This document shows positions 254 through 62,458 of a stretch of 64,000 nt of DNA, one piece after another. How positions within the stretch are numbered: the stretch's first letter is position 1; each line of letters opens with the position of its first letter. The translations under genes and the position numbers were made by a program. The stretch comes from an uncultured bacterium (lineage in GTDB: Bacteria; Patescibacteriota; Dojkabacteria; J137), in the NCBI GenBank assembly GCA_963700155.1, contig OY969472.1:517059-581058 (forward strand), written 5' to 3'. Under the pieces are notes generated by a model that ran no database searches, was not told the DNA's origin, and worked only from the letters and a program-made list of their open reading frames with translations.

Positions 254-1963
254 GTGAAAAGGCTAAAGAAACTAAAATCACATTTAAATGAATTGTATGG
301 AGATTATGATTTTAGCGAACTATATGGAATATTAGAGCGACTTCCCGATGAAGATAAAAACAATACTGACTGGTATAAGCATTTCAATCTTTACGTTACA
401 TATCCCGACAGTTTTCAAAAAGATAGAAAAAGGAATTTTTCTACATTAAAAGATCAATTAAAAAGAATTAAGTCTTCAGGATTTACAGGTATACATGTTC
501 TCCCATTCCTAGATTCTCCTTTGGTAGACGCTGGATTTGATGTAAGAAATTATGAAAAAATAAGAAGTGACCTTGGTAGTGAAGAAGATTTTGATGAATT
601 TTTAAGAGAAGCGAAAAAACTGAAAATTAAAGTTTTTATGGATATGATTTTAAATCATGTTTCGTATCAGCATACCTGGTTTCAACAAGCAGTTAAAGGA
701 AATGAAGATTATCGGGAATTCTTCTATGCTTTCAAAGAAAAACCGACTTTATTAGGAAAGAGCCAAGACACAAGTGGTCATTTTGTAAAATATAAGTTAG
801 GAAAAAGAATTATAGACATTAGATTAATATTTCCTGAACTTTCAAGTTCACTGCCTAACTTTTATAAAGGAGATGATGGCTATTATTATTTTCATACATT
901 TTATCCTGAACAGATTGATTTAAATTGGAGTAATCCAAAAGTATTTATAGAGCTTTCAAAAATTTTAATTTATTGGGCAAAGAAAGGTGTAAGCTTTAGG
1001 TTGGATGCCATACCGTTTATTGGAAAGAACTTTAAACTTGAAATTTTTGAAAGCTCTCCAAGTGCTCATAAAATTATTCAAGCCCTAAATATTATTATTA
1101 CAGGAATTAATCCTGATGCAGTATTTTTATCTGAATCTTATCAGCCAATTGAAAAAGTAATGCATTATTTTGGGGATAATAAAAATTCAGAATCAAAACT
1201 TGCCTATGATTTTAAAATGATGAATGTTTTATGGGAAGTATTAATAACTAGGAATTTCGGTAAACTAAAAGAATACCTTCAGTTAAAAAAGACTTTTACT
1301 CTTCCAGAAGACGCACAATGGGTAACTCTTTTAAGAAATCATGATGAACTTAGTCTTGAATATGCAGATGAAAATGCTAGAAAAATAATCTTAAAAGAAT
1401 TAACACCTAAAGGAATGGATTTTAAAAAAGGGTATGGAATTTCTGGGAGAACAGCTTCATTCTTGGGTGATAAAAGATTAATCTCAGCTTATGCTTTACT
1501 TTGTTCACTCCCGGGATGTCCTGCCTTAATTTATGGTGACGAAATTGGGAAAAAGAATGATATTGAAAACTTGAAAAAGCTTCAGAAAAGGAAAGAAGAA
1601 ACTATTGGGAAAATTATTGTTGATTCAAGAGATATAAATCGAGGAGTAATTGAAAGTGGTGATTTGAACATGGAAAAAAATATTAAATTACAGAAAGCTA
1701 TTTCTGATATTTTTAACCTAAGATTAAAATTTCCTGAAATGTATACACTAGATCCTATAGTTGAAAACACATTGGATAATTCTATTCATTTGAAATATGA
1801 ATTACAGGATAAGAAAGAGCTACACTGCATTATGAATTTAAGCGATGAAATACTTGAATTAAATTTTGATTATTCCAAGGTACTTTTAAAGGTTAATGAT
1901 GTTAAAATTGACGGCAATAATATTTATTTATCGAAAGATTCTGTTATCTGGATTTTATGCTGA
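254..1963 (+). CDS. Glycoside hydrolase family 13 (alpha-amylase superfamily) enzyme, TreS/amylosucrase/oligo-glucosidase-like
   Basis: GTG start. GH13 conserved regions: DAGFDVRNY, KVFMDMILNHVS, GVSFRLDAIPFI (nucleophile region), LLRNHDELSL (NHD region) and YGDEIG near the C-terminus. Confidence 0.8.
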   Translation: MKRLKKLKSHLNELYGDYDFSELYGILERLPDEDKNNTDWYKHFNLYVTYPDSFQKDRKRNFSTLKDQLKRIKSSGFTGIHVLPFLDSPLVDAGFDVRNYEKIRSDLGSEEDFDEFLREAKKLKIKVFMDMILNHVSYQHTWFQQAVKGNEDYREFFYAFKEKPTLLGKSQDTSGHFVKYKLGKRIIDIRLIFPELSSSLPNFYKGDDGYYYFHTFYPEQIDLNWSNPKVFIELSKILIYWAKKGVSFRLDAIPFIGKNFKLEIFESSPSAHKIIQALNIIITGINPDAVFLSESYQPIEKVMHYFGDNKNSESKLAYDFKMMNVLWEVLITRNFGKLKEYLQLKKTFTLPEDAQWVTLLRNHDELSLEYADENARKIILKELTPKGMDFKKGYGISGRTASFLGDKRLISAYALLCSLPGCPALIYGDEIGKKNDIENLKKLQKRKEETIGKIIVDSRDINRGVIESGDLNMEKNIKLQKAISDIFNLRLKFPEMYTLDPIVENTLDNSIHLKYELQDKKELHCIMNLSDEILELNFDYSKVLLKVNDVKIDGNNIYLSKDSVIWILC

Positions 1964-2658
1964 CATTAATTGGAACACCTTTGGGCAATATTGAAGATAT
2001 TTCTATAAGACAGTTAAAAACTTTATTTTCATTTGAAATTATCTTAGCGGAAGATACAAGAAGCTACATTAAGTTAAGAAACATTCTTTCTGAAAGATTT
2101 TCAGAGATTATCAGCGGATTAGGTCTTGATACTAATCATCGACCTGAACTAATTTCATATAGAGAGCAGAATCATAATAAAGTTTTACCTCAAATATTAG
2201 AATTATTAAAAGAAGAAAAGAAATTAGGTTTAATCACAGATGCAGGGATGCCTACAATTTCAGATCCTGGATATAAATTGGTAGATGAAGTTTTGAAAGC
2301 GGGTTTTGAGGTTGATGTGATTCCTGGAGCTACTGCAATTGAAACAGCTCTTGCGATTTCAGGACTACCAACTGATAGATTCACATTCTTAGGGTTTTTA
2401 CCTAGAACCAAATCTAAAATCCAGAAACTTTTACCTCAAAACCCGCAAAACACAATAATAATTTATGAGTCTCCTTTTAGAGTTATAAAAACTCTTGAAA
2501 TAATTTCTGAAGTTTATCCAGATGCAGAGATTGCTGCTTGCAATGATCTGACAAAAAAATTTCAGAAAGTCTGGAGAGGAAATATTAAAGAGGTGATTAT
2601 TGAACTCAAAAAAATAAAAGTACAGGGGGAATGGGTTTTAGTACTAAAGTGTTACTGA
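1957..2658 (+). CDS. rsmI: 16S rRNA (cytidine1402-2'-O)-methyltransferase RsmI (tetrapyrrole-methylase fold)
   Basis: N-terminal LIGTPLGNIEDISIRQL…AEDTR matches the RsmI signature. Length 233 aa. Overlaps the upstream gene by 7 nt. Confidence 0.8.
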   Translation: MLTLIGTPLGNIEDISIRQLKTLFSFEIILAEDTRSYIKLRNILSERFSEIISGLGLDTNHRPELISYREQNHNKVLPQILELLKEEKKLGLITDAGMPTISDPGYKLVDEVLKAGFEVDVIPGATAIETALAISGLPTDRFTFLGFLPRTKSKIQKLLPQNPQNTIIIYESPFRVIKTLEIISEVYPDAEIAACNDLTKKFQKVWRGNIKEVIIELKKIKVQGEWVLVLKCY

Positions 2659-2669
2659 TTAATATCTGA

Positions 2670-3014
2670 TTAATGTTTATCTTCGGTATTATATCTACTT
2701 AAAACCATAGCAATAAATCGAGCATAATATATATTTCCGTCTTTTCTTTTAGCAAAATCATATTGTCCTATTTCTTTATCTGTCAGATTTACTGAACCAA
2801 CGGCTTTATAAATTGCATCAGTAAGTTCAGAAAAAGTCATTCCTAGTATTTTTTGATCTACAGATTGAATATTTAAAATATGCAATATTGTATCTTCAAG
2901 ATCATGTCCTTCTTCTGTTGTTGTAAACTTCAAGGTATTTGTAATTCCAGGAATTTCTAAATTAATTTCTAGTCCAACTGGTAAATTCTTATCCTTTTCT
3001 AGTTTTTCAATCAT
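2670..3014 (-). CDS. Hypothetical protein (114 aa)
   Basis: Clean ORF with no recognisable motif. Confidence 0.35.
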   Translation of the reverse strand: MIEKLEKDKNLPVGLEINLEIPGITNTLKFTTTEEGHDLEDTILHILNIQSVDQKILGMTFSELTDAIYKAVGSVNLTDKEIGQYDFAKRKDGNIYYARFIAMVLSRYNTEDKH

Positions 3015-3056
3015 ATTAGAAAAATAAAAAAGATATAATAATTTAGTTTCAAATAA

Positions 3057-4571
3057 TTAGTTGACGATGTCAACTCTATAGCTCAAAGCTTCAGCAATAT
3101 GTTTTTCTTCAACTTTTTTTAAACCTTCTAAGTCGGCAATTGTTCGGGCAACCCGAAGAATTCTAAAATATGATCTTGCTGATAAATTCATTTTCCTTAC
3201 AGCCATATCTAACAATTGCCGAGAAGATAAATCTAATTCTATATATTTGAAAATATCTTTTTGCTTAATTTCTGAATTAGAAAAGATATTTTCATTTTCA
3301 AACCTTCTTAATTGAATCTCTTTGGCTTTTTTAACTCTAACTTTAATTTTCTCAGAACATTCAGATTCCTTATTTTCAAATAACTTATTATTTTCAACTT
3401 TTGGTACATTTATTAAAAGATCTATTCTATCCAAAATTGGTCCTGAAATTCTTTTTTGATATTTGATAACTTCACCTTGAGTACAAGTACAATGCCTTAT
3501 TGGGTCACCTCTGTAACCACATTTGCATGGGTTCATTGCTGCAACTAAAGTAAAGCTTGCCGGAAAAGTTAAAGAAGCAGAGGCTCTAGAAATTGTTACA
3601 ACTTTATCTTCTAAAGGCTGTCTTAAAGCTTCTAAAGATTGAGAAGTAAACTCTGGAAATTCATCTAAAAATAAAATACCTCGATGAGCTAAAGATATTT
3701 CTCCAGGGCGGGGGATTGCTCCCCCGCCCACAAGAGCTACTTGAGAAGAAGTATGATGCGGCGACCTGAAAGGTCGCCGCAAAACCAATGGAGAATCTTT
3801 TAAAGTCATTCCCGCAACACTATATATTCTTGTAACTTCAAGTGATTCTTCCAATGTCATATCAGGTAGAATTGAAGGAAGACATTTAGAAAGTAAAGTT
3901 TTTCCAGAACCTGGAACTCCAGAAAGCAAAATATTATGACCACCTGCTGCAGCAATTTCCATGGCTCTTTTGGCATGTTCTTGACCTTTAACTTGTGCAA
4001 AGTCATATTCGTAATTTTCAATAACATTAGAATCAAGATCTTTTACTTTTGGTTTTATTCTAATAATTCCGCTGAAATGAGCAATTAATTCACTAAGAGT
4101 TTCGACTGGATAAATTTTTATTCCATCAACAAGACTTGCTTCATCAGCATTCTCAAATGGTATATACACTTCTTCGAAACCAAGATTTTTTATATGATCA
4201 ACAATAGGTAAAATTCCATGAACAGGCCTAAGCCTTCCATCCAAAGCTAATTCACCAATAAAAAGTTTCTTTTCTGTATCAATTTTTATCTGTTCCGAAG
4301 CAATTAAATATCCAATAGCTAATGGAAGGTCATAACTAGGACCTGTTTTTATTAATTCGGCGGGAGCTAAATTCATTATAATCTGCATAGGTATAAAGCT
4401 CCCGCCAGAATTTTTAATCGCCGAAGGGATTCTATCTTTAGCTTCTTGTATTGACTTATCTGCAAGGCCTACAATAGAGAAGAAGTTTGTACCTTTTCGA
4501 TAATCAACTTCAACTTCTACAATTTTACAGTCTAGACCTAAGAGAGTAGCGGTATATAATTTTGCCAACAT
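3057..4571 (-). CDS. comM: Mg-chelatase-like AAA+ ATPase YifB/ComM
   Basis: N-terminal Lon-like domain, Walker A (GVPGSGKT), conserved RRPFRSPHH…LVGGG…PRPGEISLAHRGILFLDEFPEF block. 504 aa. Confidence 0.85.
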   Translation of the reverse strand: MLAKLYTATLLGLDCKIVEVEVDYRKGTNFFSIVGLADKSIQEAKDRIPSAIKNSGGSFIPMQIIMNLAPAELIKTGPSYDLPLAIGYLIASEQIKIDTEKKLFIGELALDGRLRPVHGILPIVDHIKNLGFEEVYIPFENADEASLVDGIKIYPVETLSELIAHFSGIIRIKPKVKDLDSNVIENYEYDFAQVKGQEHAKRAMEIAAAGGHNILLSGVPGSGKTLLSKCLPSILPDMTLEESLEVTRIYSVAGMTLKDSPLVLRRPFRSPHHTSSQVALVGGGAIPRPGEISLAHRGILFLDEFPEFTSQSLEALRQPLEDKVVTISRASASLTFPASFTLVAAMNPCKCGYRGDPIRHCTCTQGEVIKYQKRISGPILDRIDLLINVPKVENNKLFENKESECSEKIKVRVKKAKEIQLRRFENENIFSNSEIKQKDIFKYIELDLSSRQLLDMAVRKMNLSARSYFRILRVARTIADLEGLKKVEEKHIAEALSYRVDIVN

Positions 4572-5348: not shown

Positions 5349-6563
5349 TTAAAAACTTAGCGTTGGGTCTCGATCGATTTGATCAAAATCTTTTAAATAA
5401 ATATTTTCTGAAGGATTATGTTTTATTTCTGAAATTTTTGAAAGCTTAACATTCGCAGCAACTGCAATCATAGCTGCATTATCTCCAGTCAATTTCTTTG
5501 AATATGGGAATCGCATTTTAATATTATTTTCTTTACAAATTACCCTAAATTCAGATCTCAATCTTGAACTAGCTATAACGCCGCCGCCAAGCCAAAGTTC
5601 TTTAGGTTGGTATTTCTGAATTGCTTTTCGAAGCTTGAACTTAAGCTGTTCAAGGGCGGCGGCTTCAAATACTACACACAAATCCATAATTTGTTCTTTT
5701 GTTAATCCGCCTTTTGATTTATCAGAATACAATCCTTCGATTTCTTCTTTGTGGCTTATAGTTTTGTTTAACAATTTCTCTACTAATTGCTTAAATGCTG
5801 TTTTTACTCCTGAATAACTGAAGTTTAAGTCACCAGATCTAATCATCGCTATCGGCAACATATATTCTGCTTTTGTATTTTTATTTGTACACTTTACTGA
5901 AGTACTTAGATTATCTTTAACAATTTCAATTTTCATATTTTTTCTTTGTCTTTTTGCAAATTCAGTAATAATCGGACCTGCAGGATATCCAAGTCCTAAA
6001 ATCCTTCCGCATTTATCATAAGCTTCTCCACATGAATCGTCTAAAGTTTCCCCTAGTTTTTCATATTCACCCCAGTTTTTTACAAGAATTAATTCAGTAT
6101 GGCTTCCAGAAACTAAAAAACCTAATGTTGGAAATTGCTGATCATTAACTTTGGTTTCAAAATCTAACTCTTTTAATTCTGATTTTCTCTCGGCGAAAGC
6201 TGAAAGAAGATGTCCTTCCATGTGATTTATTAAAATAAGTGGTTTATTATATTCAACACTCAAAGCTTTCGCCTTTTTAACTCCAATTTCTAAAGCTATT
6301 GCCAATCCTGGACCAATAGTTACTGCAACAGCATCAATATCCTTCATTTCTAAACCGGCTCTTTTCAAAGCTTCAATAACAACATTATCTATTCTTTCTG
6401 CATGTGCTAATCTTGCAAGATTAGGCACAACACCTCCATATTTTTTATGAAATTCCATTTGAGATGGCTGGACATTTGAAAGTACAGTAAAACCTCGGAC
6501 AACTGAAGCCGATGTTTCATCACAAGATGTATCTATTCCTAGTGTTAAAAAGTCTTTATGCAT
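5349..6563 (-). CDS. tsaD: tRNA N6-adenosine threonylcarbamoyltransferase TsaD/Kae1/Qri7 family
   Basis: LGIDTSCDETSASVV, GGVVPNLARLAHAERI, ASKH-fold metal-binding motifs, C-terminal GDNAAMIA. The likely start is the internal Met (MHKDFLTLGID) at 6563, whereas the ORF track extends to 6599. Confidence 0.85.
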   Translation of the reverse strand: MHKDFLTLGIDTSCDETSASVVRGFTVLSNVQPSQMEFHKKYGGVVPNLARLAHAERIDNVVIEALKRAGLEMKDIDAVAVTIGPGLAIALEIGVKKAKALSVEYNKPLILINHMEGHLLSAFAERKSELKELDFETKVNDQQFPTLGFLVSGSHTELILVKNWGEYEKLGETLDDSCGEAYDKCGRILGLGYPAGPIITEFAKRQRKNMKIEIVKDNLSTSVKCTNKNTKAEYMLPIAMIRSGDLNFSYSGVKTAFKQLVEKLLNKTISHKEEIEGLYSDKSKGGLTKEQIMDLCVVFEAAALEQLKFKLRKAIQKYQPKELWLGGGVIASSRLRSEFRVICKENNIKMRFPYSKKLTGDNAAMIAVAANVKLSKISEIKHNPSENIYLKDFDQIDRDPTLSF

Positions 6564-8034: not shown

Positions 8035-8637
8035 TTATTTATTATATAGTTCTTCAACCATATCCCAGTTAATAACATTCCAGAAAGCATCAATATATTC
8101 CGGTCTTCTATTTTGATATTTCAAATAATAAGCATGTTCCCAAACATCAAGTCCCATAACAGATTTATGATCATGTAGCAAAGTACTATCCTGATTAGGA
8201 AGTTGGTGTAAATGAAAATTTCCTTCATTATCAGCACCTATCATTACCCATCCACTCCCAAAAAGAGTAGATGCTTGTTTTACAAATTCCTCTTTAAAAC
8301 TATTGAAGTCACCCCAAACTTTATTAATCTCTTCGGCAACTCTTCCAATCGGTTCTTTTGAACCATCTTTGCTTAAAATCTGCCAGAATAATGAATGATT
8401 GTAATGTCCGCCACCATTATTCCTAACAGCAGTTCTTATATCTTCGGGAACCGAATCTAAATCCACTAAAAGCTCTTCGATAGTTTTTGACTGCAATTCT
8501 TCATGTCCTTCCAATGCAGCATTGAGTTTTTTAACATATCCTCCATGGTGCAAATCATGATGAATCTCCATAGTTTTAGCATCAATATATGGCTCTAGCG
8601 CGTCAAATGAGTATGGTAATTGAGGTAACTCGAACAT
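8035..8637 (-). CDS. sodA: Fe/Mn superoxide dismutase
   Basis: LPYSFDALEPYID, HHDLHHGGYV, and DVWEHAYYL metal ligands. 200 aa. Confidence 0.9.
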   Translation of the reverse strand: MFELPQLPYSFDALEPYIDAKTMEIHHDLHHGGYVKKLNAALEGHEELQSKTIEELLVDLDSVPEDIRTAVRNNGGGHYNHSLFWQILSKDGSKEPIGRVAEEINKVWGDFNSFKEEFVKQASTLFGSGWVMIGADNEGNFHLHQLPNQDSTLLHDHKSVMGLDVWEHAYYLKYQNRRPEYIDAFWNVINWDMVEELYNK

Positions 8638-8765
8638 ATAGTATTTCCTTAAAAAGTAAACTATAAAAAGTATATCATAGTGAAGTTTTTGAGTCGTAAC
8701 TTCAGTTTGACCTAAATTTAAATTACCACTATAGTGTTAAAATTTTGTAAAGATTAAAAATTTTT

Positions 8766-9641
8766 ATGAACTTAATAACCAGAGATAAAAAATTCATGAA
8801 TACAACAATCACCTTTAAAGTTGTTAAAGGTGATGTAACAACTGTAAAAACCCTAGATTCAATTGAAGCGGCTTTTGGTGAATTTGACAGAATTGTAAAA
8901 CAATATACAAGGTTTGATGAAAACTCTGAACTTTCAAATTTAAATAGAAATAGTGGTAAATGGGTCAAAGTTTCAAGCGAGTTTTTTTGGCTCATAGAAT
9001 ATATGCTTAAACTTGCCAAAAAAACTCGCGGTGCATTCGACCCAACAGTAATAGATTTTCTTGAAGTCTATGGCTATGATAAAAACTATGACTTCTCAAA
9101 ACTTAATAATCCAGAACTTGATAAATTAGTTGAAAAAATCAGTAAAACAAGAAAGTCATGGAAAGATGTTGAATTGAAGAAAAAGAGTAGCGAAGTAAAA
9201 TTGGCAAAGGTCCAAAAAATTGACTTAGGTGGAGTAGGTAAAGGATATGCAATAGATTGTGCTTTTGAAAAATTAAAACAAGTTTCAGATAATTTTCTTA
9301 TTGATGCTGGTGGAGATGTTAGAGCATCTGGCACTAATGAGAAGGGTGAATTATGGAAGGTTGGAATGAAAGATAGAGCAGGAGAAATTGAAGAATTAAT
9401 CGGATATATCGAGCTTAATAATGAAGCCCTCGCATGCTCTGGATCATGGTCTAGAAGAGTGAAACAGTTCCACCATCTTATAAACCCAGCGACTGGAGTT
9501 CCTCAAAATTATTATCGGACAGTTTTTGTTCAAGCTCCTGATGGAATTACTTCAGATTCATGGGCAACTGCAGTTTTTGTTTCGGGAGAAAATGACTTAA
9601 AAATTCCTGAAAATATGAAGATATTCAAAATAACTAATTGA
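8766..9641 (+). CDS. apbE: FAD:protein FMN transferase ApbE family
   Basis: IDLGGVGKGYAIDCAF matches the ApbE signature, and the length fits. The real start may be the Met at 8793. Confidence 0.7.
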   Translation: MNLITRDKKFMNTTITFKVVKGDVTTVKTLDSIEAAFGEFDRIVKQYTRFDENSELSNLNRNSGKWVKVSSEFFWLIEYMLKLAKKTRGAFDPTVIDFLEVYGYDKNYDFSKLNNPELDKLVEKISKTRKSWKDVELKKKSSEVKLAKVQKIDLGGVGKGYAIDCAFEKLKQVSDNFLIDAGGDVRASGTNEKGELWKVGMKDRAGEIEELIGYIELNNEALACSGSWSRRVKQFHHLINPATGVPQNYYRTVFVQAPDGITSDSWATAVFVSGENDLKIPENMKIFKITN

Positions 9642-10338
9642 ATCCTTTTTGGAAGTACAAACTATTTAATCTATAACCGCTCTTAAAAACAGTTTCTATA
9701 AAATAACTCTCACTAGATTCACCTAATTTCTTTCTTAACCTGCTAATCAAAGTATCAACTGCACCATAAGAAACATCACTGTTGTTATAAAAAACTTTAC
9801 TTAAAATCTCATCCCTTGAATAAAGTCTTCCATTCGATTTTAAAAATAACAAAAGTAAATTGAATTCTAATTTCGTAAGATCTATCTGCAAGTCTTTTCT
9901 AAATACAACTTTTGAACACATATCAACTTTGAAATCTCCAACTTCAAATACTTCATTAAAGACTATATTTCTTGTTAGGGCTTTAATTTGAGCTTCGAGA
10001 AGTTTTAACTCAATTGGCTTTTTATGGAAAAGATTTGTTCCACACTCATAACTTTCAATTTCATATTCTAAACTATAATTTTCTGCTGTCATAATTGTTG
10101 GAGTTTCTATTCCTATATTTCTTATTCGTTGAAGTAAAGATAGGCCAGTTCCCTTATCAAGATCCATATCAATGATTATTAAGTCGAATTTTTCTCTATC
10201 AAGAATTCTTAGAGTATCAAGAGCTGAATATCTAACATCAACTTTGAAGTTTTTAAGATTTAAGAATTTCTTAAGCAGAAAAACTAATTTAATATCATCA
10301 TCTATTATTAAAATCTTTGCATTTTTTATTGATTTCAT
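9634..10338 (-). CDS. OmpR/PhoB-type two-component response regulator
   Basis: Receiver domain (ILIIDDD…DLIIIDMDL…K) followed by a C-terminal winged-helix trans_reg_C domain (…YGAVDTLISRLRKKL). No histidine kinase gene adjacent. Confidence 0.8.
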   Translation of the reverse strand: MKSIKNAKILIIDDDIKLVFLLKKFLNLKNFKVDVRYSALDTLRILDREKFDLIIIDMDLDKGTGLSLLQRIRNIGIETPTIMTAENYSLEYEIESYECGTNLFHKKPIELKLLEAQIKALTRNIVFNEVFEVGDFKVDMCSKVVFRKDLQIDLTKLEFNLLLLFLKSNGRLYSRDEILSKVFYNNSDVSYGAVDTLISRLRKKLGESSESYFIETVFKSGYRLNSLYFQKGFN

Positions 10339-54920: not shown

Positions 54921-55442
54921 GTGAAAATTATGAATGATACCAAGTATATTTTAAAGCAAAAACTGACAGTAAAAAATTTATTCATAGTTAATAACTTATA
55001 TCCTTTTTATAAAACTAGAGTATTTTTAATGATCATCTTATTCTATTTCATTATTATTTCGATAATAATATTTACTGAAATTGATATTAATATTTTTTCA
55101 ACATTAGGGTTAATAGTTGCAGTACTAACACTATTATTACTAAGTATTATATTAACAATCTTTATTGTAGAGGTTAATTTTATAATTGGCTTGATTGCTA
55201 GATTTAAAAATTTGAATACTGAAGATGAAACAATACTGACAGGAAGTGAGGTAATATCAAGAAATGCTTATGGAGAAATGAAGTATAATTATAATTCAGT
55301 TAACAGATTTCAAAGTATAGGTAAGTTTTTCTTTTTAATCCCGAAATCAACATATACTAATTTCCTATACTTTACTGTAGAAGATCGTAGGCTTAGGAAA
55401 GAGGTTAGAAGTTTTTTACAAGATAAGACATCTAATACTTAA
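54921..55442 (+). CDS. Hypothetical membrane protein (173 aa)
   Basis: TM helices followed by a soluble C-terminal domain. Confidence 0.35.
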   Translation: MKIMNDTKYILKQKLTVKNLFIVNNLYPFYKTRVFLMIILFYFIIISIIIFTEIDINIFSTLGLIVAVLTLLLLSIILTIFIVEVNFIIGLIARFKNLNTEDETILTGSEVISRNAYGEMKYNYNSVNRFQSIGKFFFLIPKSTYTNFLYFTVEDRRLRKEVRSFLQDKTSNT

Positions 55443-56014
55443 GGATACTTTATATATTCATCCTCTTTACTTTTTGGAAGATATTCAGAAACCTCAACAT
55501 GCCTACCATGAATCAATCTCATCAATGGATTAAATCCTATTTCCTCTCTTTCACCATAATCCAAATACTGAATCAAAATTTTAAAAATCTCCTTATCATC
55601 ACCATCATTAACAATTAGTGACACCCTCTTTACATAATTTGGATTTTCATCCTCTGCAACCTCAAGATTCAAAAATTTAGTATTTTCTTTCTCAGAAAAC
55701 CAAAAATGCTTTATATTTCTCCATCTAAAAAGCTTATTAAAACTTCGGATTCCAAGAGTAGTAATAGTATGCTCAACAATCTGTGGAGGGATTGCACCTT
55801 GAATAAACCATAAAAACACAAACGCAACAACAGCAACAATCAACACATATTCACTAACTAAAGCTAAAAGTCCGATTATGACAACAAAAAAGAAAGAATA
55901 TGAAACATACCACTGCTTTGTTTTTGGTGACCACATTCTTTCCGGAGACTCCCAAGTAAACAACTTAGTAAAAGGATTCTCAGGATCTATTTCTGTGAAT
56001 AATTTAGGTTTCAT
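55439..56014 (-). CDS. Hypothetical membrane protein (bPH/YdbT-like topology)
   Basis: Two adjacent TM helices then a soluble domain. Confidence 0.35.
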   Translation of the reverse strand: MKPKLFTEIDPENPFTKLFTWESPERMWSPKTKQWYVSYSFFFVVIIGLLALVSEYVLIVAVVAFVFLWFIQGAIPPQIVEHTITTLGIRSFNKLFRWRNIKHFWFSEKENTKFLNLEVAEDENPNYVKRVSLIVNDGDDKEIFKILIQYLDYGEREEIGFNPLMRLIHGRHVEVSEYLPKSKEDEYIKYP

Positions 56015-56070
56015 ACTTTTACAGTATACAGCAAGTAGAAAGTAGTTTACAGAATTAAACTCTTCAATTT

Positions 56071-57948
56071 TTATCCAAATGGAGATTTTAGTTTTATATT
56101 ATCTTCCTCTTTTTCCTTAGTCTTAGTTTTAACATCTTTAACTTCATTCTTTTTATGCTTTCTTTTCCTGACTCGTAAAATAATGAAGATCAAGATTATA
56201 GCGATAGGAACTGCTTCTATTATAGTTTTAACAACACTTCTTAAAGAATTATCAGGAACAATATTAAAGAGAAGAGAATCAATCCTTTGATCAATTGAAT
56301 AAGTAAAGAGGTTTATTGAACTAGTTGCATCTGAAAGAACCTGCCAGATAGAGGTATTTTTTGGATATTTTTGGATTAGGTCATCTTCAGTCATCGCATT
56401 CTTTGTCTTTGTTACAGCACTATCGGCAGGTTCTATATCATCTTCTCTTTGCGGAACATCCAAGCTCCCATAAAATGAAACTTCTGTTGAACTCGGAGTA
56501 TTTGGATCAACCGAAGCTACATGTGTATAAAAATGGTTTAAATCTCCTCCAATAACTGCAGGACCATTTTCACCCCAAGTTGTATCAACCGGAATCCATG
56601 AATTGATTCCAGGAACATAAACTTCTGCCCATTGGTGGTTTATTGTATTGTCCTGAGTTGAGAGATAATCAATTGCTGAATATGCGTGCCCAAAAGCTCC
56701 TCGGGCAGGAACTCCCATTGCACGCATCAATGCAATAAATAAATCCGAATATTCCATACAGACGCCTGAACCGTTTTGCAAAGTTGCTAATGCTCCTTGT
56801 CTTTGATTTAATCCGAACCTTTTAACATTGTCGTAGTCAATTTTATCTACAACAAATTTGTATGTTTTATCCACTAAATTATATACATTAGTCTCTGAAC
56901 CTTTGATAGTGTTTGCAGCTTGTTGGATCTGAATAGCTGCGCTTTCCCAGTATTTAGCATTTGCCAGATCTGTTTGAAATTCAGATTTATTAACATCAGA
57001 TAAATTTCCTGAGTCATTTGGATTTAACTTTAGATTCTGATCTAAAATTCCATATCCTTTAACTTCAATTGTTCCAGATGCATTTGAAGGGACTCTGAAT
57101 TCTGCAATTAAATTCCCATCAGAGTCTTCATAAACAGTTGTTGGTTCTGGATCTAACTTTGTGAAGTACACTTTTTGATTTATATGCCCCGATTTTATAT
57201 TTCTTGGCAGTATTATTTTATATGTATTATATGGGAATGGGATTGTTGTACTTGGTGTGTATGGCTGTTTTAAATCAAAAGAGTAGTATTGAGTTTTTCC
57301 GATTTGGATCCATCCAGTTTCTCCAACAAGCTGCTCCTGATTATAGTCTACGACCCAGAAATTATTTGATTTTTTTATTCCTACTTCCGGTGCAGTAAAG
57401 TTAATCTCGCCAAAATTCGTAGGAATTTTGGCTTCGGTAGTAACAGTTTCTTTAGAATTCCCACTTTCAAAGACATAATCTTTTGAAAAAGCTGGAATAT
57501 AAAAGTCTCGAATTGCTCCGCTTTTTATCAAAAGCCCATAAGAAATATAGCTTAGAGTAACTTTATATGAATTCCCATAGTTAATATTAGAAGGGAATCT
57601 TATAATAATTTGTAAGTTGTCACCTGAGGTTTTCTGTGATTCATAACTAAGCTTTATGCCATAGCTATCAATAATGCTAATAGAGTTCAATGTCTTTTGT
57701 AGTTTATTAGATTGCTTTGGGTCTCCTTTAAAAGGATTGAAAATTATGAATGATTCTTCGGTTCCTGCTGGTATGTACCATGAAGATTGAGTGATATTAA
57801 TCGTTTTGGTTTCAGTAACCTTAACTGAATCATCTTGAGCTTCATAAACTCTATCATATTGCTTATTAATTATCGCAGCTTTTACCTTTATAGAAAAAAA
57901 GGTAAGCATTACTGGAACAGCTAGAATTATGAAAAGATATTTTTTCAT
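56071..57948 (-). CDS. Secreted transglutaminase-like cysteine protease domain protein with C-terminal TM anchor
   Basis: Signal peptide. Core motif GSGVCMEYSDLFIALMRAMGVPAR…HQWAEVYVPG…PVDTTWG gives a Cys-His-Asp triad. C-terminal TM plus a Lys-rich tail. Confidence 0.7.
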   Translation of the reverse strand: MKKYLFIILAVPVMLTFFSIKVKAAIINKQYDRVYEAQDDSVKVTETKTINITQSSWYIPAGTEESFIIFNPFKGDPKQSNKLQKTLNSISIIDSYGIKLSYESQKTSGDNLQIIIRFPSNINYGNSYKVTLSYISYGLLIKSGAIRDFYIPAFSKDYVFESGNSKETVTTEAKIPTNFGEINFTAPEVGIKKSNNFWVVDYNQEQLVGETGWIQIGKTQYYSFDLKQPYTPSTTIPFPYNTYKIILPRNIKSGHINQKVYFTKLDPEPTTVYEDSDGNLIAEFRVPSNASGTIEVKGYGILDQNLKLNPNDSGNLSDVNKSEFQTDLANAKYWESAAIQIQQAANTIKGSETNVYNLVDKTYKFVVDKIDYDNVKRFGLNQRQGALATLQNGSGVCMEYSDLFIALMRAMGVPARGAFGHAYSAIDYLSTQDNTINHQWAEVYVPGINSWIPVDTTWGENGPAVIGGDLNHFYTHVASVDPNTPSSTEVSFYGSLDVPQREDDIEPADSAVTKTKNAMTEDDLIQKYPKNTSIWQVLSDATSSINLFTYSIDQRIDSLLFNIVPDNSLRSVVKTIIEAVPIAIILIFIILRVRKRKHKKNEVKDVKTKTKEKEEDNIKLKSPFG

Positions 57949-58034
57949 CTGTTTATTATCTCATTAAATTATCCTGATAGACAATTATAAAGATAATTTG
58001 TTAACATCCATAGCAAAATAAGATTGATTTTATT

Positions 58035-58445
58035 ATGGAAGGAACAAAACTAACAAATCTTAAATCCGGATTGGTTCAAATAGAAAGATTTAATGATAGA
58101 CAAAGGATAATGTTTATAGAAAACCCAGATCTGTATAGATTTTTAATTAATGTTTGCCAAGATCAATATAAAAGAAAAGACACTATACGATATAAAGATG
58201 AAATAATTTATAGACATTACATTAAAGAAGCTGAGGTTAAATTATGGAGAGTATTGCGATTAATAGAAAATATTCCGAATATTGTAAATTTGAGAGATGA
58301 AGGAATAAAGCAAAGGGATCTTCTTGGAATGTACTTTTCTGAAGCAATTTTACCAATTTTATCTGAAATTAATCCTCTTGTTTTAGCATTTATATGTAGT
58401 AATAGAGAAGAACAAATGGAAAATGTTTTGCAAAAAGAAGCGTAA
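58035..58445 (+). CDS. Small hypothetical protein, tandem paralog family member 1 (136 aa)
   Basis: Shares a C-terminal block with the next two genes: …YFSEAILPILSEINPLVLAFI. Confidence 0.45.
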   Translation: MEGTKLTNLKSGLVQIERFNDRQRIMFIENPDLYRFLINVCQDQYKRKDTIRYKDEIIYRHYIKEAEVKLWRVLRLIENIPNIVNLRDEGIKQRDLLGMYFSEAILPILSEINPLVLAFICSNREEQMENVLQKEA

Positions 58446-58507
58446 AAAGCAGGGAAGAAATTTTGCTTGAGGTGTTAATATTTAAATAGATTTATTAAGA
58501 AAATTTT

Positions 58508-58945
58508 ATGTCAGATACAAGAATGGATGAACAATGTCATGAGAATAGATTGAATTTAGGTCTAACGAATTTTAATGAGTTAAACTCAAATCAAAAGTCA
58601 TACTTAATTAAACATCCAGTTATTTACCAGCAGTTATCTACAATTTGTATCGATGCAGCTATGGGTAATATTGATGAGATTTTATCTATTGAATTCAGAA
58701 AAGCTGCACAAGTATTCGACAGGATTATTGATGCTATAGCTTTTCAATTTACATATATATACTCAAAATACAACCCTGGAGAAGAAAGCTTTGCAGATTT
58801 CTTTGATATAACAATAAGAGATATTCTTGTTAAAGGAAATATATCTCCAGAAGTAATAGAACTATTAAATAGTGACTCTGTATTGGAAAGAATAATTAAA
58901 GCTCTCGAAGATGAGAATCCTGGAACTCAAATTCCTGAGTGTTGA
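58508..58945 (+). CDS. Small hypothetical protein, tandem paralog family member 2 (145 aa)
   Basis: …FFDITIRDILVKGNISPEVIELL. Confidence 0.45.
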   Translation: MSDTRMDEQCHENRLNLGLTNFNELNSNQKSYLIKHPVIYQQLSTICIDAAMGNIDEILSIEFRKAAQVFDRIIDAIAFQFTYIYSKYNPGEESFADFFDITIRDILVKGNISPEVIELLNSDSVLERIIKALEDENPGTQIPEC

Positions 58946-58999
58946 ATATAGCTAAGTATAAATGCTAATATCCCAGTATATTTGTAAAACAATTAAATT

Positions 59000-59440
59000 A
59001 TGGATAATTTTGATCTTGATTGGTTAAAAACAATAACTTTGGAATGGTTCTCATATACTTTGGAACAAAAAGCTTCATTTGTTAAAAATTTTAATTTATT
59101 TCAAGAGCTTTGTATTGACTGTATGCTTATGCATCAGAATCAGGTTAAGCAGTTCAGTGTAAATGAAGGTGAATCTTCAAGTTATTCAAGAGCAGCTGAT
59201 AAATTTAAAGATATTTATCTAAAGTGTAAGGATTTTATGTCTGAAAATAAAGTGTCCGATTATTCTTCACAAGATGAGTTCTATAGAAAGATTTCAAACT
59301 TTTTTGATGAATCGATACTTCCAATAATTCAAGACATTAATAATTTATATCCTGAAGTAGTGAGATTCTTACGTGATAATAATGTTGAAGAATCTATTGG
59401 TGTGAAATTTAATAAACAAAAAGTAAATCAGGAATCTTAA
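59000..59440 (+). CDS. Small hypothetical protein, tandem paralog family member 3 (146 aa)
   Basis: …FFDESILPIIQDINNLYPEVVRFL. Confidence 0.45.
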   Translation: MDNFDLDWLKTITLEWFSYTLEQKASFVKNFNLFQELCIDCMLMHQNQVKQFSVNEGESSSYSRAADKFKDIYLKCKDFMSENKVSDYSSQDEFYRKISNFFDESILPIIQDINNLYPEVVRFLRDNNVEESIGVKFNKQKVNQES

Positions 59441-59559
59441 TACTCTCTATCTTTGTCAGAACTTTGTAAAAACTCTATGGTAAGATGTTACAGCCGGATT
59501 TTAAAAATGAGTATACTTGCTATAGAATAATCTCCGACATATAAATCTTAAACTAAGAG

Positions 59560-61710
59560 TTGATGCTTGATCTAAAAATTCTCAATTCACCACAAAAAGA
59601 TGCGGTAGAAGCTACTGACGGTCCAGTATTAGTTTTGGCCGGCGCGGGAAGCGGTAAAACTAGAGTTTTGACTTATAGAATTGCCTATATTTTAGATTCA
59701 GGACTCGCCGGCCCTGATAATATATTGGCTATGACTTTCACAAATAAAGCAGCCGCAGAAATGAAAGAGAGAATAAAAGCTCTTTTAGAATCAACAGATA
59801 TGCAGTCGCCAATCTCAAATTTGTTCTGGATGGGAACTTTTCATTCAATCTGCGTAAAGATTTTAAAGATGAACGGTCAACTAGTAGGAATTGGACGAAA
59901 TTTTACAATTTATGATTCTGCAGATCAGGTTGTTGCAGTAAAAGAAGCAATGAAGCGATTAGATATATCAATCAAGGATTTTAATCCAAATGCTGTTCAT
60001 TCATATATTTCATCTGCGAAAAATGAGCTTGTTGATGCTGAAATGTACAATTCTTATGCACAAGGATATTTTCAACAGGTAGTTGCAAAGATATATCCTG
60101 TCTATCAAAAGGTTTTGAGGGAAAATAATGCGGTTGATTTTGATGATCTACTTTTTTATACAGTTCAGCTGTTTAGAGAAAATAAGAATATTTTAGAGTT
60201 TTACCAAGATAAGTTTAAATATATTTTAGTTGATGAATATCAGGATACTAATCACGCACAATATATTTTGATTAATATGTTAGCCGAAAAGTATAGAAAT
60301 ATCTGTTGTGTAGGGGACGATGATCAGAGTATCTATGCTTTCAGGGGTGCAACAATAAAAAATATTTTAAATTTTGAAAAAGATTATCCGGAATCAAAAG
60401 TAATAAAGTTAGAGCAGAACTATAGGTCTACTAAAAAGATTTTAGAAGCTTCGCATCAAGTCATTAGCAAGAATAAAGGTAGAAAAGAGAAAAAGCTTTG
60501 GACTGAAAATGATGATGGCGAACAAATAACTTTGTATACAGCATCAAATGAAATTAATGAGGCAAACTGGATTGTTAAAAAGATTATAGAATTGAGCAAA
60601 GATATGGATTTAAGTAATTTTGCAGTTTTATATAGAACAAATGCTCAGTCAAGAAGTTTAGAAGAAGCATTTATTCAAGAAGCTTTACCCTATAGAATTG
60701 TCGGAGGCCTTCGCTTTTATGACAGAAAAGAAATTAAAGACACTCTCTCTTATTTAAAAATTATTTATAACCCAAAAGATAATAAAAGCCTGGAACGTAT
60801 TATCAATGTTCCAAAGAGAGGGGTTGGTGATAAAACTGTTCAAGGTTTCGAAGCGAAGGCCTCCGAACAAAATAAAAGTGCAGTTGAATATCTTTTAGAA
60901 AACTCTGAAGAAATAACGAATACTGGACTCTTAAATTTTTCATTTATAATTCGAGATCTTTTTGAAAAATCCAAAGAATTAAATATTGTTGAACTTATTA
61001 ATTATATTCTTGAAAAAACAGGTTATATAAAAATGCTTGAAGATGGAACTTTAGAGAATGAATCCAGAATTGAAAATTTGAAGGAGCTTATCTCTGTAGC
61101 TTCGGCTTTTGAAGATGAAACACCGGAAGAAGGTTTAGAAAAATTCCTTGATGATGTAAGTCTTCTTGAAGGTGCAGGGGAAGAAGATGTTAATGCAAAA
61201 TCTAGTGTTACTTTGATGACAATTCATGCAGCAAAAGGTTTGGAATTTGAGTATGTTTTTGTAGTTGGAATGGAAGAAAACCTTTTCCCGCATTCGAATT
61301 CACTCATGGATAATAATGAGATGGAAGAAGAGCGAAGGTTAGCTTATGTTGCAATAACAAGAGCTAAAAAAAGATTGTTTTTGACCCATGCAGTAAAACG
61401 AAAATATTTTGGTATTAATCAAAATAATCCTATTTCCAGATTTATTGGTGATATTGATGATGAACTTTTAGAAAAAGATGCAGACTATATGTATGTTGGT
61501 CCAACTGAGGAATATACTTCAAAATCTTATGATGAATCTTATGAATGGATGGATGATCTTCATTTACAAACTGGTGATAAAGTAAAACATGAGTATTTTG
61601 GCAAGGGAACTGTAAAAAGAATTGATGGAACTAATGTTGTTATTGATTTTGGACCTGTTTATGGTGAAAAAGAATTAATGCTTGAATACGCCAAGCTTGA
61701 GAAAATATAA
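59560..61710 (+). CDS. pcrA: ATP-dependent DNA helicase PcrA/UvrD (SF1)
   Basis: Motif I AGAGSGKTRVL, Ia, II (DEYQDTN), III, IV (VGGLRFYDRKEIKD), V and VI (VAITRAK). 716 aa. Confidence 0.9.
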   Translation: MMLDLKILNSPQKDAVEATDGPVLVLAGAGSGKTRVLTYRIAYILDSGLAGPDNILAMTFTNKAAAEMKERIKALLESTDMQSPISNLFWMGTFHSICVKILKMNGQLVGIGRNFTIYDSADQVVAVKEAMKRLDISIKDFNPNAVHSYISSAKNELVDAEMYNSYAQGYFQQVVAKIYPVYQKVLRENNAVDFDDLLFYTVQLFRENKNILEFYQDKFKYILVDEYQDTNHAQYILINMLAEKYRNICCVGDDDQSIYAFRGATIKNILNFEKDYPESKVIKLEQNYRSTKKILEASHQVISKNKGRKEKKLWTENDDGEQITLYTASNEINEANWIVKKIIELSKDMDLSNFAVLYRTNAQSRSLEEAFIQEALPYRIVGGLRFYDRKEIKDTLSYLKIIYNPKDNKSLERIINVPKRGVGDKTVQGFEAKASEQNKSAVEYLLENSEEITNTGLLNFSFIIRDLFEKSKELNIVELINYILEKTGYIKMLEDGTLENESRIENLKELISVASAFEDETPEEGLEKFLDDVSLLEGAGEEDVNAKSSVTLMTIHAAKGLEFEYVFVVGMEENLFPHSNSLMDNNEMEEERRLAYVAITRAKKRLFLTHAVKRKYFGINQNNPISRFIGDIDDELLEKDADYMYVGPTEEYTSKSYDESYEWMDDLHLQTGDKVKHEYFGKGTVKRIDGTNVVIDFGPVYGEKELMLEYAKLEKI

Positions 61711-61986: not shown

Positions 61987-62010
61987 GGCGCTCCGATTTA
62001 TCGGAGCGCC
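61987..62010 (+). terminator. GC-rich perfect hairpin (10-bp stem ggcgctccga/tcggagcgcc, loop ttta)
   Basis: Lies 16 nt after the ORF stop. The T-tract downstream is weak (…tgttgttagatttt). Confidence 0.45.
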
Positions 62011-62046
62011 AGAACCCTATTGTTGTTAGATTTTGGCAGCAATTAA

Positions 62047-62095: not shown

Positions 62096-62380
62096 ATGAT
62101 TCGACAGAGTATTGGGAAAGCTTTGGGTATGTTTGGGGCAGCAATGCTGCTGCTTCATTTACTCATAACAGCGATCCTGTTCAATGGTCAAGATGACCCA
62201 TTAGGACATCTTGACTTGTCAGGATGGGTAGGATTAATTCTGCCTGTCATTTTGTCGGTTGGTTTGATGATCTACTCAATCTATCTGGTTGAGTTTCATC
62301 AAACTCGAGTTCTAAATCATGATCATGTAACAAAAATCGACTTCGTGGTCAGGCATCGAACTCATCTGCACGTCAGATGA
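62096..62380 (+). CDS. Small 2-TM membrane protein with His-rich C-terminus, atypical composition (~42% GC)
   Basis: MIRQSIGKALGMFGAAMLLL… ends …HQTRVLNHDHVTKIDFVVRHRTHLHVR. Codon usage (ctg, ggc, gtc) differs from the rest of the window. The ORF track begins it at a TTG (62033). Confidence 0.4.
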   Translation: MIRQSIGKALGMFGAAMLLLHLLITAILFNGQDDPLGHLDLSGWVGLILPVILSVGLMIYSIYLVEFHQTRVLNHDHVTKIDFVVRHRTHLHVR

Positions 62381-62396
62381 GACATTGCTTGATCGA

Positions 62397-62458
62397 GGGC
62401 GCTCGCGAAAGAGCTTGGTGACCAAAAGTCCCAGGTGCGAGCGCCCGAAAGGCTTTTT
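62397..62458 (+). terminator. Long-loop hairpin plus T-tract (stem gggcgctcgc/gcgagcgccc, 30-nt loop, then gaaaggcttttt)
   Basis: Perfect 10-bp GC-rich inverted repeat followed by T5. Confidence 0.5.

Follow-up and report, generated by a model that had tools for sequence, protein, structure and literature searches.

Gene organization of the locus

The window (the whole 64,000-nucleotide stretch of DNA analyzed here) contains three short open reading frames, hereafter the triplet, that follow one another on the forward strand directly 5' of pcrA, with the sizes, strand and order that the original prediction had given them. Paralog A (58035-58445, +) encodes a neutral protein of 136 aa (pI 6.6) that is predicted to be all-helical, with neither a signal peptide nor a membrane segment predicted. 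Paralog B (58508-58945, +) encodes 145 aa with a pI of 4.4 and a net charge of about -12, and paralog C (59000-59440, +) encodes an acidic protein of 146 aa (pI 4.75), the member that links A and B. The spacers measure 62 bp between A and B, 54 bp between B and C, and 119 bp between C and pcrA, and no competing ORF of at least 50 aa overlaps the triplet on either strand.

Upstream of the triplet lies an AT-rich divergent intergenic region of 86 bp (57949-58034), which separates A (+) from a transglutaminase-like gene (-) and in which a consensus scan places a putative promoter for the triplet (57978-58007). Downstream, the C-pcrA spacer (59441-59559, +) holds the ancestral upstream region of pcrA and leads into the helicase gene itself (+), which starts at TTG 59560 or ATG 59563 and ends at 61710. 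Its product is a full-length PcrA/UvrD helicase (Pfam UvrD-helicase, 5e-94; UvrD_C, 3e-81).

The transglutaminase-like gene is half of a pair (55439-57948, -) that adjoins pcrA in all Dojkabacteria relatives examined. The transglutaminase-core protein that it encodes has 600-627 aa and carries a signal-like segment at the N-terminus and a membrane segment at the C-terminus; the partner gene encodes a membrane protein of about 190 aa, which has two membrane segments and is weakly similar to DUF5673/DUF6161.

Paralogy of the three proteins

Several comparisons establish that the three proteins are related. BLASTP connects A with C (E=5e-5, 25% identity over 134 aa) and B with C (E=2e-5, 27% identity over 114 aa); the direct A-B comparison falls below significance, and these two are tied through C and through leave-one-out profiles. 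In Smith-Waterman alignments the real score stands at z = 7.9 for A-C and z = 7.5 for B-C, equalled by none of 2000 shuffles in either case, and at z = 6.2 for A-B, equalled by one of 2000. When a profile was built from two members, the third was the top remaining match among the 389 six-frame ORFs of the window, at E-values from 9e-7 (A retrieved by B+C) to 7e-5 (B retrieved by A+C). The original prediction had asked for pairwise and profile comparison, and by all three routes the similarity is above chance, as is the shared block on which the prediction was built.

That block, near the C-terminus, aligns in A (YFSEAILPILSEINPLV), B (FFDITIRDILVKGNISPEV) and C (FFDESILPIIQDINNLYPEV), and all three copies fit the consensus (Y/F)F(S/D)xxI(L/R)(P/D)I...N..P(E/L)V. 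An N-terminal (L/F)xxxCxD pattern also recurs in each protein, though its exact spacing, as first described, is only approximate and C needs a register shift to fit it. All paralog pairs are about 25% identical, and a repeat search finds no DNA-level similarity left among the three genes. The proposal of an old tandem triplication in an uncharacterized family is borne out by this significant paralogy at low identity, together with the lack of a match to any known family. A, B and C are almost certainly real paralogous genes, as judged from their sequences.

Coding status

The coding status of the triplet is established by composition as well as by conservation. In-frame codon log-odds of A, B and C (0.24-0.29) lie within the range of the 44 long ORFs of the window (0.32 +/- 0.05, minimum 0.19), and the off-frames score from -0.8 to -1.7. 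GC1/GC2/GC3 values of about 0.40/0.26/0.19 are genome-typical.

It could be supposed that the three ORFs are not genes at all, being instead chance open frames or decayed pseudogenes in intergenic DNA, a reading in line with the absence of homologs from all searches and with the lack of a Shine-Dalgarno-like motif upstream of any of the three. We regard it as barely credible. Three consecutive stop-free frames of 136-146 codons are found here in DNA of 30% GC, where a run of 136 stop-free codons at the base composition of the triplet has a chance probability of about 8e-6 for each; the frame-specific codon bias equals that of bona fide genes; and the copies are alike at the protein level, with hydrophobic core positions kept. 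That similarity survives in the proteins after vanishing from the DNA in its own right speaks for selection acting on a folded product. The missing Shine-Dalgarno motif is normal here, because such motifs are rare across the genome and only 4 of the 44 window genes have one upstream. Such 4-mers are in fact rarer upstream of genes than in random 19-mers of the window (14%), which suggests that translation initiation in this host is largely SD-independent.

Taxonomic distribution

Searches of very different scope agree on the orphan status of the family. Pfam, NCBIfam, PADLOC (at E<=1) and PHROG gave no match for A, B or C, and a profile search of PDB sequences returned nothing better than E=1.4. 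Among 5.8 billion word-indexed proteins, neither C nor the three-member profile retrieved anything but the triplet itself at E<=10, and an exhaustive HMMER search of 1.84 billion cluster representatives likewise found no homologs beyond self. No match emerged from tblastn against phage and plasmid genomes; triplet-motif scans of metagenome and viral contigs, IMG/VR included, produced hundreds of pattern matches of which none was confirmed; and the literature on Dojkabacteria genomes held nothing specific to the family. A, B and C each form a singleton cluster (P0003, P0002 and P0001, respectively) whose source is a single contig of 1,140,724 bp. The same searches would also reveal paralogs elsewhere in the source genome, and as there were none, the family consists of exactly three adjacent genes. 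By this evidence the protein family is new, with no detectable relative, and is known so far from one Dojkabacteria-like (CPR/Patescibacteria) genome.

The neighboring helicase provides a measure of how densely this part of the tree is sampled. The PcrA of the window shares 63-70% identity with its counterparts in Candidatus Dojkabacteria genomes; among the 5.8 billion proteins the nearest one reaches 70%, over 100 further clusters come next at 56-70%, and a scan of metagenome contigs recovered only relatives at 47-51% identity. Judged by this one protein, the window lineage is without a close sequenced relative inside a reasonably well-sampled class. The orphan status of the triplet stems partly from sparse sampling, because the closest sequenced PcrA is only 70% identical and unsequenced members of the same genus might carry orthologs.

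The gap upstream of pcrA in related genomes

The gene order around the triplet is conserved in every Dojkabacteria relative examined, with the membrane protein gene (about 190 aa) and the transglutaminase-like gene (600-627 aa) on the minus strand, followed by pcrA and, farther on, trmD on the plus strand. In 9 of the 11 relatives with PcrA 63-70% identical to that of the window, the gap between the divergent neighbors is empty and only about 30-240 bp long (about 200 bp in L002, about 30-56 bp in L003, 93 bp in L014, 159 bp in L015, 127 bp in L016, 84 bp in L017, 61 bp in L018, 109 bp in L020 and 239 bp in L021). The other two carry unrelated cargo. In L007 it is a 427-aa ORF without assignment on the strand opposite to pcrA (8511-9794, -), and in L019 it is a methyltransferase, a nucleoside-deoxyribosyltransferase-like gene and a 125-aa ORF (1849-3894, +). 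None of the 11 relatives has a homolog of the triplet, nor is there one among the ORFs of the 21 loci compared.

Candidate homologs in these loci were set aside. The length of the L007 ORF equals the sum of the three paralogs (136+145+146 = 427), but as a fused or inverted triplet it scores within the shuffle range in Smith-Waterman alignment and at 0.2% in hhalign, and we treat the agreement as coincidence. The 125-aa gap ORF of L019 and two ORFs of 136 and 125 aa downstream of trmD in L020 all have hhalign probabilities of <=0.3%. The L007 ORF may itself contain an internal repeat, with a Smith-Waterman score of 53 between two of its thirds against 31 +/- 5.6 for shuffles.

Since the gap is empty in nine relatives and holds unrelated cargo in two, its ancestral state was that of an empty divergent-promoter gap. 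As read from these loci, the triplet is a gain specific to the window lineage, set in a permissive gap that has evidently taken insertions at least three times independently.

A site of this kind raises the question of mobile DNA. The triplet might be decayed mobile-element or prophage cargo, for example early-gene or anti-defense proteins binding host or defense proteins, left behind in a permissive site. The gap is a recurrent insertion site, as the other cargo in L007 and L019 attests, and the flank beyond pcrA is also hypervariable. Small acidic helical orphan proteins are common among the products of phage early genes. The expected traces of mobility are, however, absent: there is no integrase, no transposase, no adjacent tRNA (the two tRNA genes of the window both lie >5 kb from the triplet) and no notable direct or inverted flanking repeat, a repeat search around the cluster having returned only short AT-rich chance matches. 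Codon usage and GC are indistinguishable from those of the host, and PHROG, BFVD, phage genomes, plasmids and IMG/VR gave no matches. We consider a mobile origin of this sort unlikely.

The pcrA-trmD interval is even more variable than the transglutaminase-pcrA gap. Across the Dojkabacteria loci L014-L021 its cargo is, by locus, an Amidase_2 gene, a DUF72 gene, a GNAT acetyltransferase gene, or a YdjM gene together with genes for a methyltransferase and a Ser/Thr kinase; in the window it holds a pair of small membrane ORFs. Beyond trmD, at a distance of a few kb, L014, L017 and L018 have a PIN-domain gene next to an ORF of about 155-165 aa, with a toxin-antitoxin-like look. Within the window interval, GC content rises to 43% over the segment 61989-62500, in a genome of 30% GC. 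The segment carries two hairpins, one of them a perfect 10-bp stem (61989-62012) and the other very stable (about 62397-62447; -36.6 kcal/mol, z = -3.5), as well as an ORF for a small predicted membrane protein at about 62096-62380. It has no match in Rfam and may be either foreign DNA inserted recently or a structured RNA not described before.

Relationship of the triplet to pcrA

A short element upstream of pcrA bears on whether the triplet and the helicase gene belong together. The element, TTGTAAAAACTCTATGGTAAGAT, lies at 59464-59486, inside the C-pcrA spacer, and has the form TTGTAAGA-N5-ATGATAGAAT. It also occurs upstream of pcrA in L021 (TTGTAAGAACTCTATGATAGAAT, position 3859), L014 (TTGTAAGAAAGTTATGATAGAAT, position 5948) and L007 (TTGTAAGATTATCATGATAGAAT, position 9885), once per locus and 75-140 nt from the gene in these three relatives, giving a 23-nt consensus of TTGTAA(G/A)A-N5-ATG(A/G)TA(G/A)(A/G)AT. 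In the window it overlaps a promoter-like site found by consensus scan (59453-59481). TTGTAA and the TA..AT hexamer lie too close together to form a standard -35/-10 pair; the element may be an extended -10 promoter preceded by a site for a regulator, such as a damage-response operator.

Because the element is kept between C and pcrA, the insertion lies upstream of the native control region of pcrA, an arrangement that favors transcription of pcrA independently of the triplet. As no terminator is predicted in the C-pcrA spacer, read-through from the triplet may nonetheless co-transcribe the helicase gene.

The original prediction had proposed that the position directly 5' of an SF1 helicase gene may be functional, and had suggested looking for co-occurrence with pcrA. 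The comparison speaks against such a tie: the gap is empty or filled with unrelated genes in all the relatives, and with a homolog in 0 of the 11 the triplet does not behave as a conserved PcrA/UvrD accessory factor would. A narrower version would hold that the three proteins are lineage-specific PcrA modulators, co-transcribed with the gene, which would bind either the helicase or RNA polymerase, its partner, so as to tune unwinding or repair. The shared strand, the location directly 5' of pcrA and the 119-bp spacer without a predicted terminator fit this idea, but the triplet is missing from all 11 relatives despite their full-length PcrA, the conserved element that precedes pcrA is still in place beyond the end of C, and occupancy of the gap is not helicase-specific, as seen from the methyltransferase/deoxyribosyltransferase cassette of L019 and the opposite-strand ORF of L007. 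We judge a modulator role to be quite improbable. As pcrA keeps its own upstream element, adjacency to the helicase reflects position and not a conserved functional coupling, and the gain of the triplet is likely unrelated to any conserved function of PcrA.

Within the pcrA coding sequence, a sub-threshold match to Rfam RF03531, a Clostridioides difficile sRNA located inside a helicase gene, occurs at 61299-61397 (+; 48.8 bits against a cutoff of 65.2). It most likely reflects conserved helicase coding sequence and not an RNA gene.

Immunity and defense readings

A domain survey of the genes between 52.4 and 63.4 kb found no toxin, defense or mobile-element gene near the triplet, whose neighbors are the conserved transglutaminase-like protein, small membrane proteins, pcrA and trmD. 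Toxin domains of known type II toxin-antitoxin superfamilies, such as PIN, RelE, MazF and HipA, are absent from the same genes.

The suggestion that the array serves immunity, antitoxin or defense functions is left unsupported by this survey, with no adjacent toxin or defense gene and no PADLOC or PHROG match; it is a doubtful proposal whose sole ground is the general pattern of small, diverging tandem paralogs. In its most explicit form, the triplet would be an orphan immunity or antitoxin array in which each copy neutralizes a different toxin variant by tight binding, the toxins (e.g., polymorphic ones) coming from neighbors or hosts and the duplication and divergence of the copies tracking toxin diversity. 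Small, diverged, lineage-restricted tandem paralogs are typical hallmarks of immunity arrays, and the triplet has this character: its proteins are small, soluble, helical and partly acidic, they are tandem paralogs at about 25% identity that diverged faster than the flanking orthologs, and the family is restricted to one lineage. Yet the DNA for several kb around is free of toxin genes, toxin C-terminal cassettes and secretion genes, the spacers within the triplet (54-62 bp) leave no room for hidden cassettes, no ORF lies inside any of the 54-119 bp spacers, and neither the immunity and antitoxin families of Pfam, NCBIfam and PADLOC nor solved immunity folds are matched. On balance, an immunity array has a small share of our credence.

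Predicted structure and conserved positions

An AlphaFold model of C, built from the three-sequence alignment, reached pLDDT 74.7 and pTM 0.72. The corresponding model of A was unusable (pLDDT 41), and the structural description uses the C model only. In this model the chain folds into a bundle of seven helices, of which three long ones (residues 32-52, 61-82 and 91-116) form the core. Fold searches with it against the PDB and BFVD returned generic helix-bundle matches and no specific neighbor, although a specific relative in fold may have escaped them; there was no significant PDB fold match and no match to solved immunity proteins.

The three-copy alignment is invariant at L9, Q23, L37, C41, K, F, I, I, N, P, V, E and E, for the most part hydrophobic residues of the core (L/F/I/V) together with a helix-break motif, N-x(0-3)-P-E/L-V. 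Nothing in it points to a catalytic or metal site, since conserved His residues, paired Cys residues and acidic pairs are all missing. The weak fold matches of C included DPS, bacterioferritin and alternative oxidase; a ferritin-like or di-iron four-helix bundle was rejected, as paired ExxH/E ligands on the core helices are not conserved.

Origin and proposed role

The flanking genes give a scale for the divergence of the triplet. Between the window and its triplet-free relatives, the transglutaminase-like and membrane proteins are 37-58% identical and PcrA and TrmD 61-71% identical. Three histories could account for copies that differ as much as A, B and C do. The duplications may postdate the split from these relatives, with the triplet evolving much faster than its neighbors; the cluster may be older and have been lost repeatedly in the relatives; or it may have come from an unsampled donor as a ready-made triplet.

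We lean slightly toward the view that A, B and C are lineage-restricted, fast-diverging, soluble helical-bundle binders in a permissive gap and are not tied to PcrA. On this view the window lineage has gained, in the normally empty divergent-promoter gap between the transglutaminase-like gene and pcrA, a cluster of genes for small soluble all-helical orphan proteins, deeply diverged tandem duplicates whose divergence after duplication would have been rapid. What the copies seem to have kept is mainly the hydrophobic core of the helix bundle and the helix-break motif, the rest having diverged. From the conserved core, the diverged remainder and the lack of a catalytic or metal signature we infer a non-enzymatic binder: the proteins would act stoichiometrically, as binding or adaptor proteins, and the three copies may have diversified in what each of them binds. 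The non-enzymatic role is an argument from the absence of motifs, and we hold it in even balance with its opposite.

A more far-reaching possibility, to which we give little weight, is that a new family arose de novo, or evolved beyond recognition, in one Dojkabacteria lineage and was then tandemly amplified and diversified under conflict-type selection. Its members could possibly be binders serving an episymbiotic lifestyle or acting against lineage-specific phages or toxins. Were this the case, the triplet would be a rare example in which the emergence of an orphan fold and its early expansion can be dated to a normally empty gap.

If the preferred reading of lineage-restricted binders holds, the locus offers a clean, well-delimited, lineage-specific gene gain in a reduced CPR genome, with the empty ancestral state preserved in nine relatives. 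It would be a usable case for the origin and expansion of orphan genes in ultra-small genomes, with a candidate function in conflict or interaction. The triplet reveals neither a new helicase partner nor a new defense system, and its practical impact will be limited until closer genomes or expression data exist.

Comparison with known systems

In predicted fold, the nearest class to the C model is that of generic long-helix bundles, such as the F-BAR core, the vinculin/alpha-catenin tail and designed helical bundles. B and C resemble the Ocr/ArdA anti-restriction DNA mimics of phages in being small, helical and acidic (pI 4.4-4.75), but A is neutral (pI 6.6), the charge density of the triplet is much lower than that of DNA mimics, and the triplet has neither a Pfam or PHROG match nor a phage or plasmid context.

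The tandem arrays of polymorphic-toxin immunity proteins (Imm families) are comparable in layout. Like them, the triplet consists of small, diverged, cytoplasmic tandem paralogs on one strand, with very low identity and a narrow taxonomic range. It differs from them in having no adjacent toxin or cassette and no membership, by sequence or fold, in an immunity family, and in being flanked by conserved housekeeping-type genes.

There is a parallel in setting with the ORFan clusters of CPR/Patescibacteria. Unknowns of this kind make up a large share of CPR genes, and orphan clusters are familiar in these genomes; like them, the triplet comprises unassigned hypothetical proteins, confined to one lineage and placed in a variable gap between conserved genes. 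It differs from such clusters in being demonstrably triplicated, with copies that keep a common core, and this combination directly supports a folded protein under selection and speaks against noise in the annotation.
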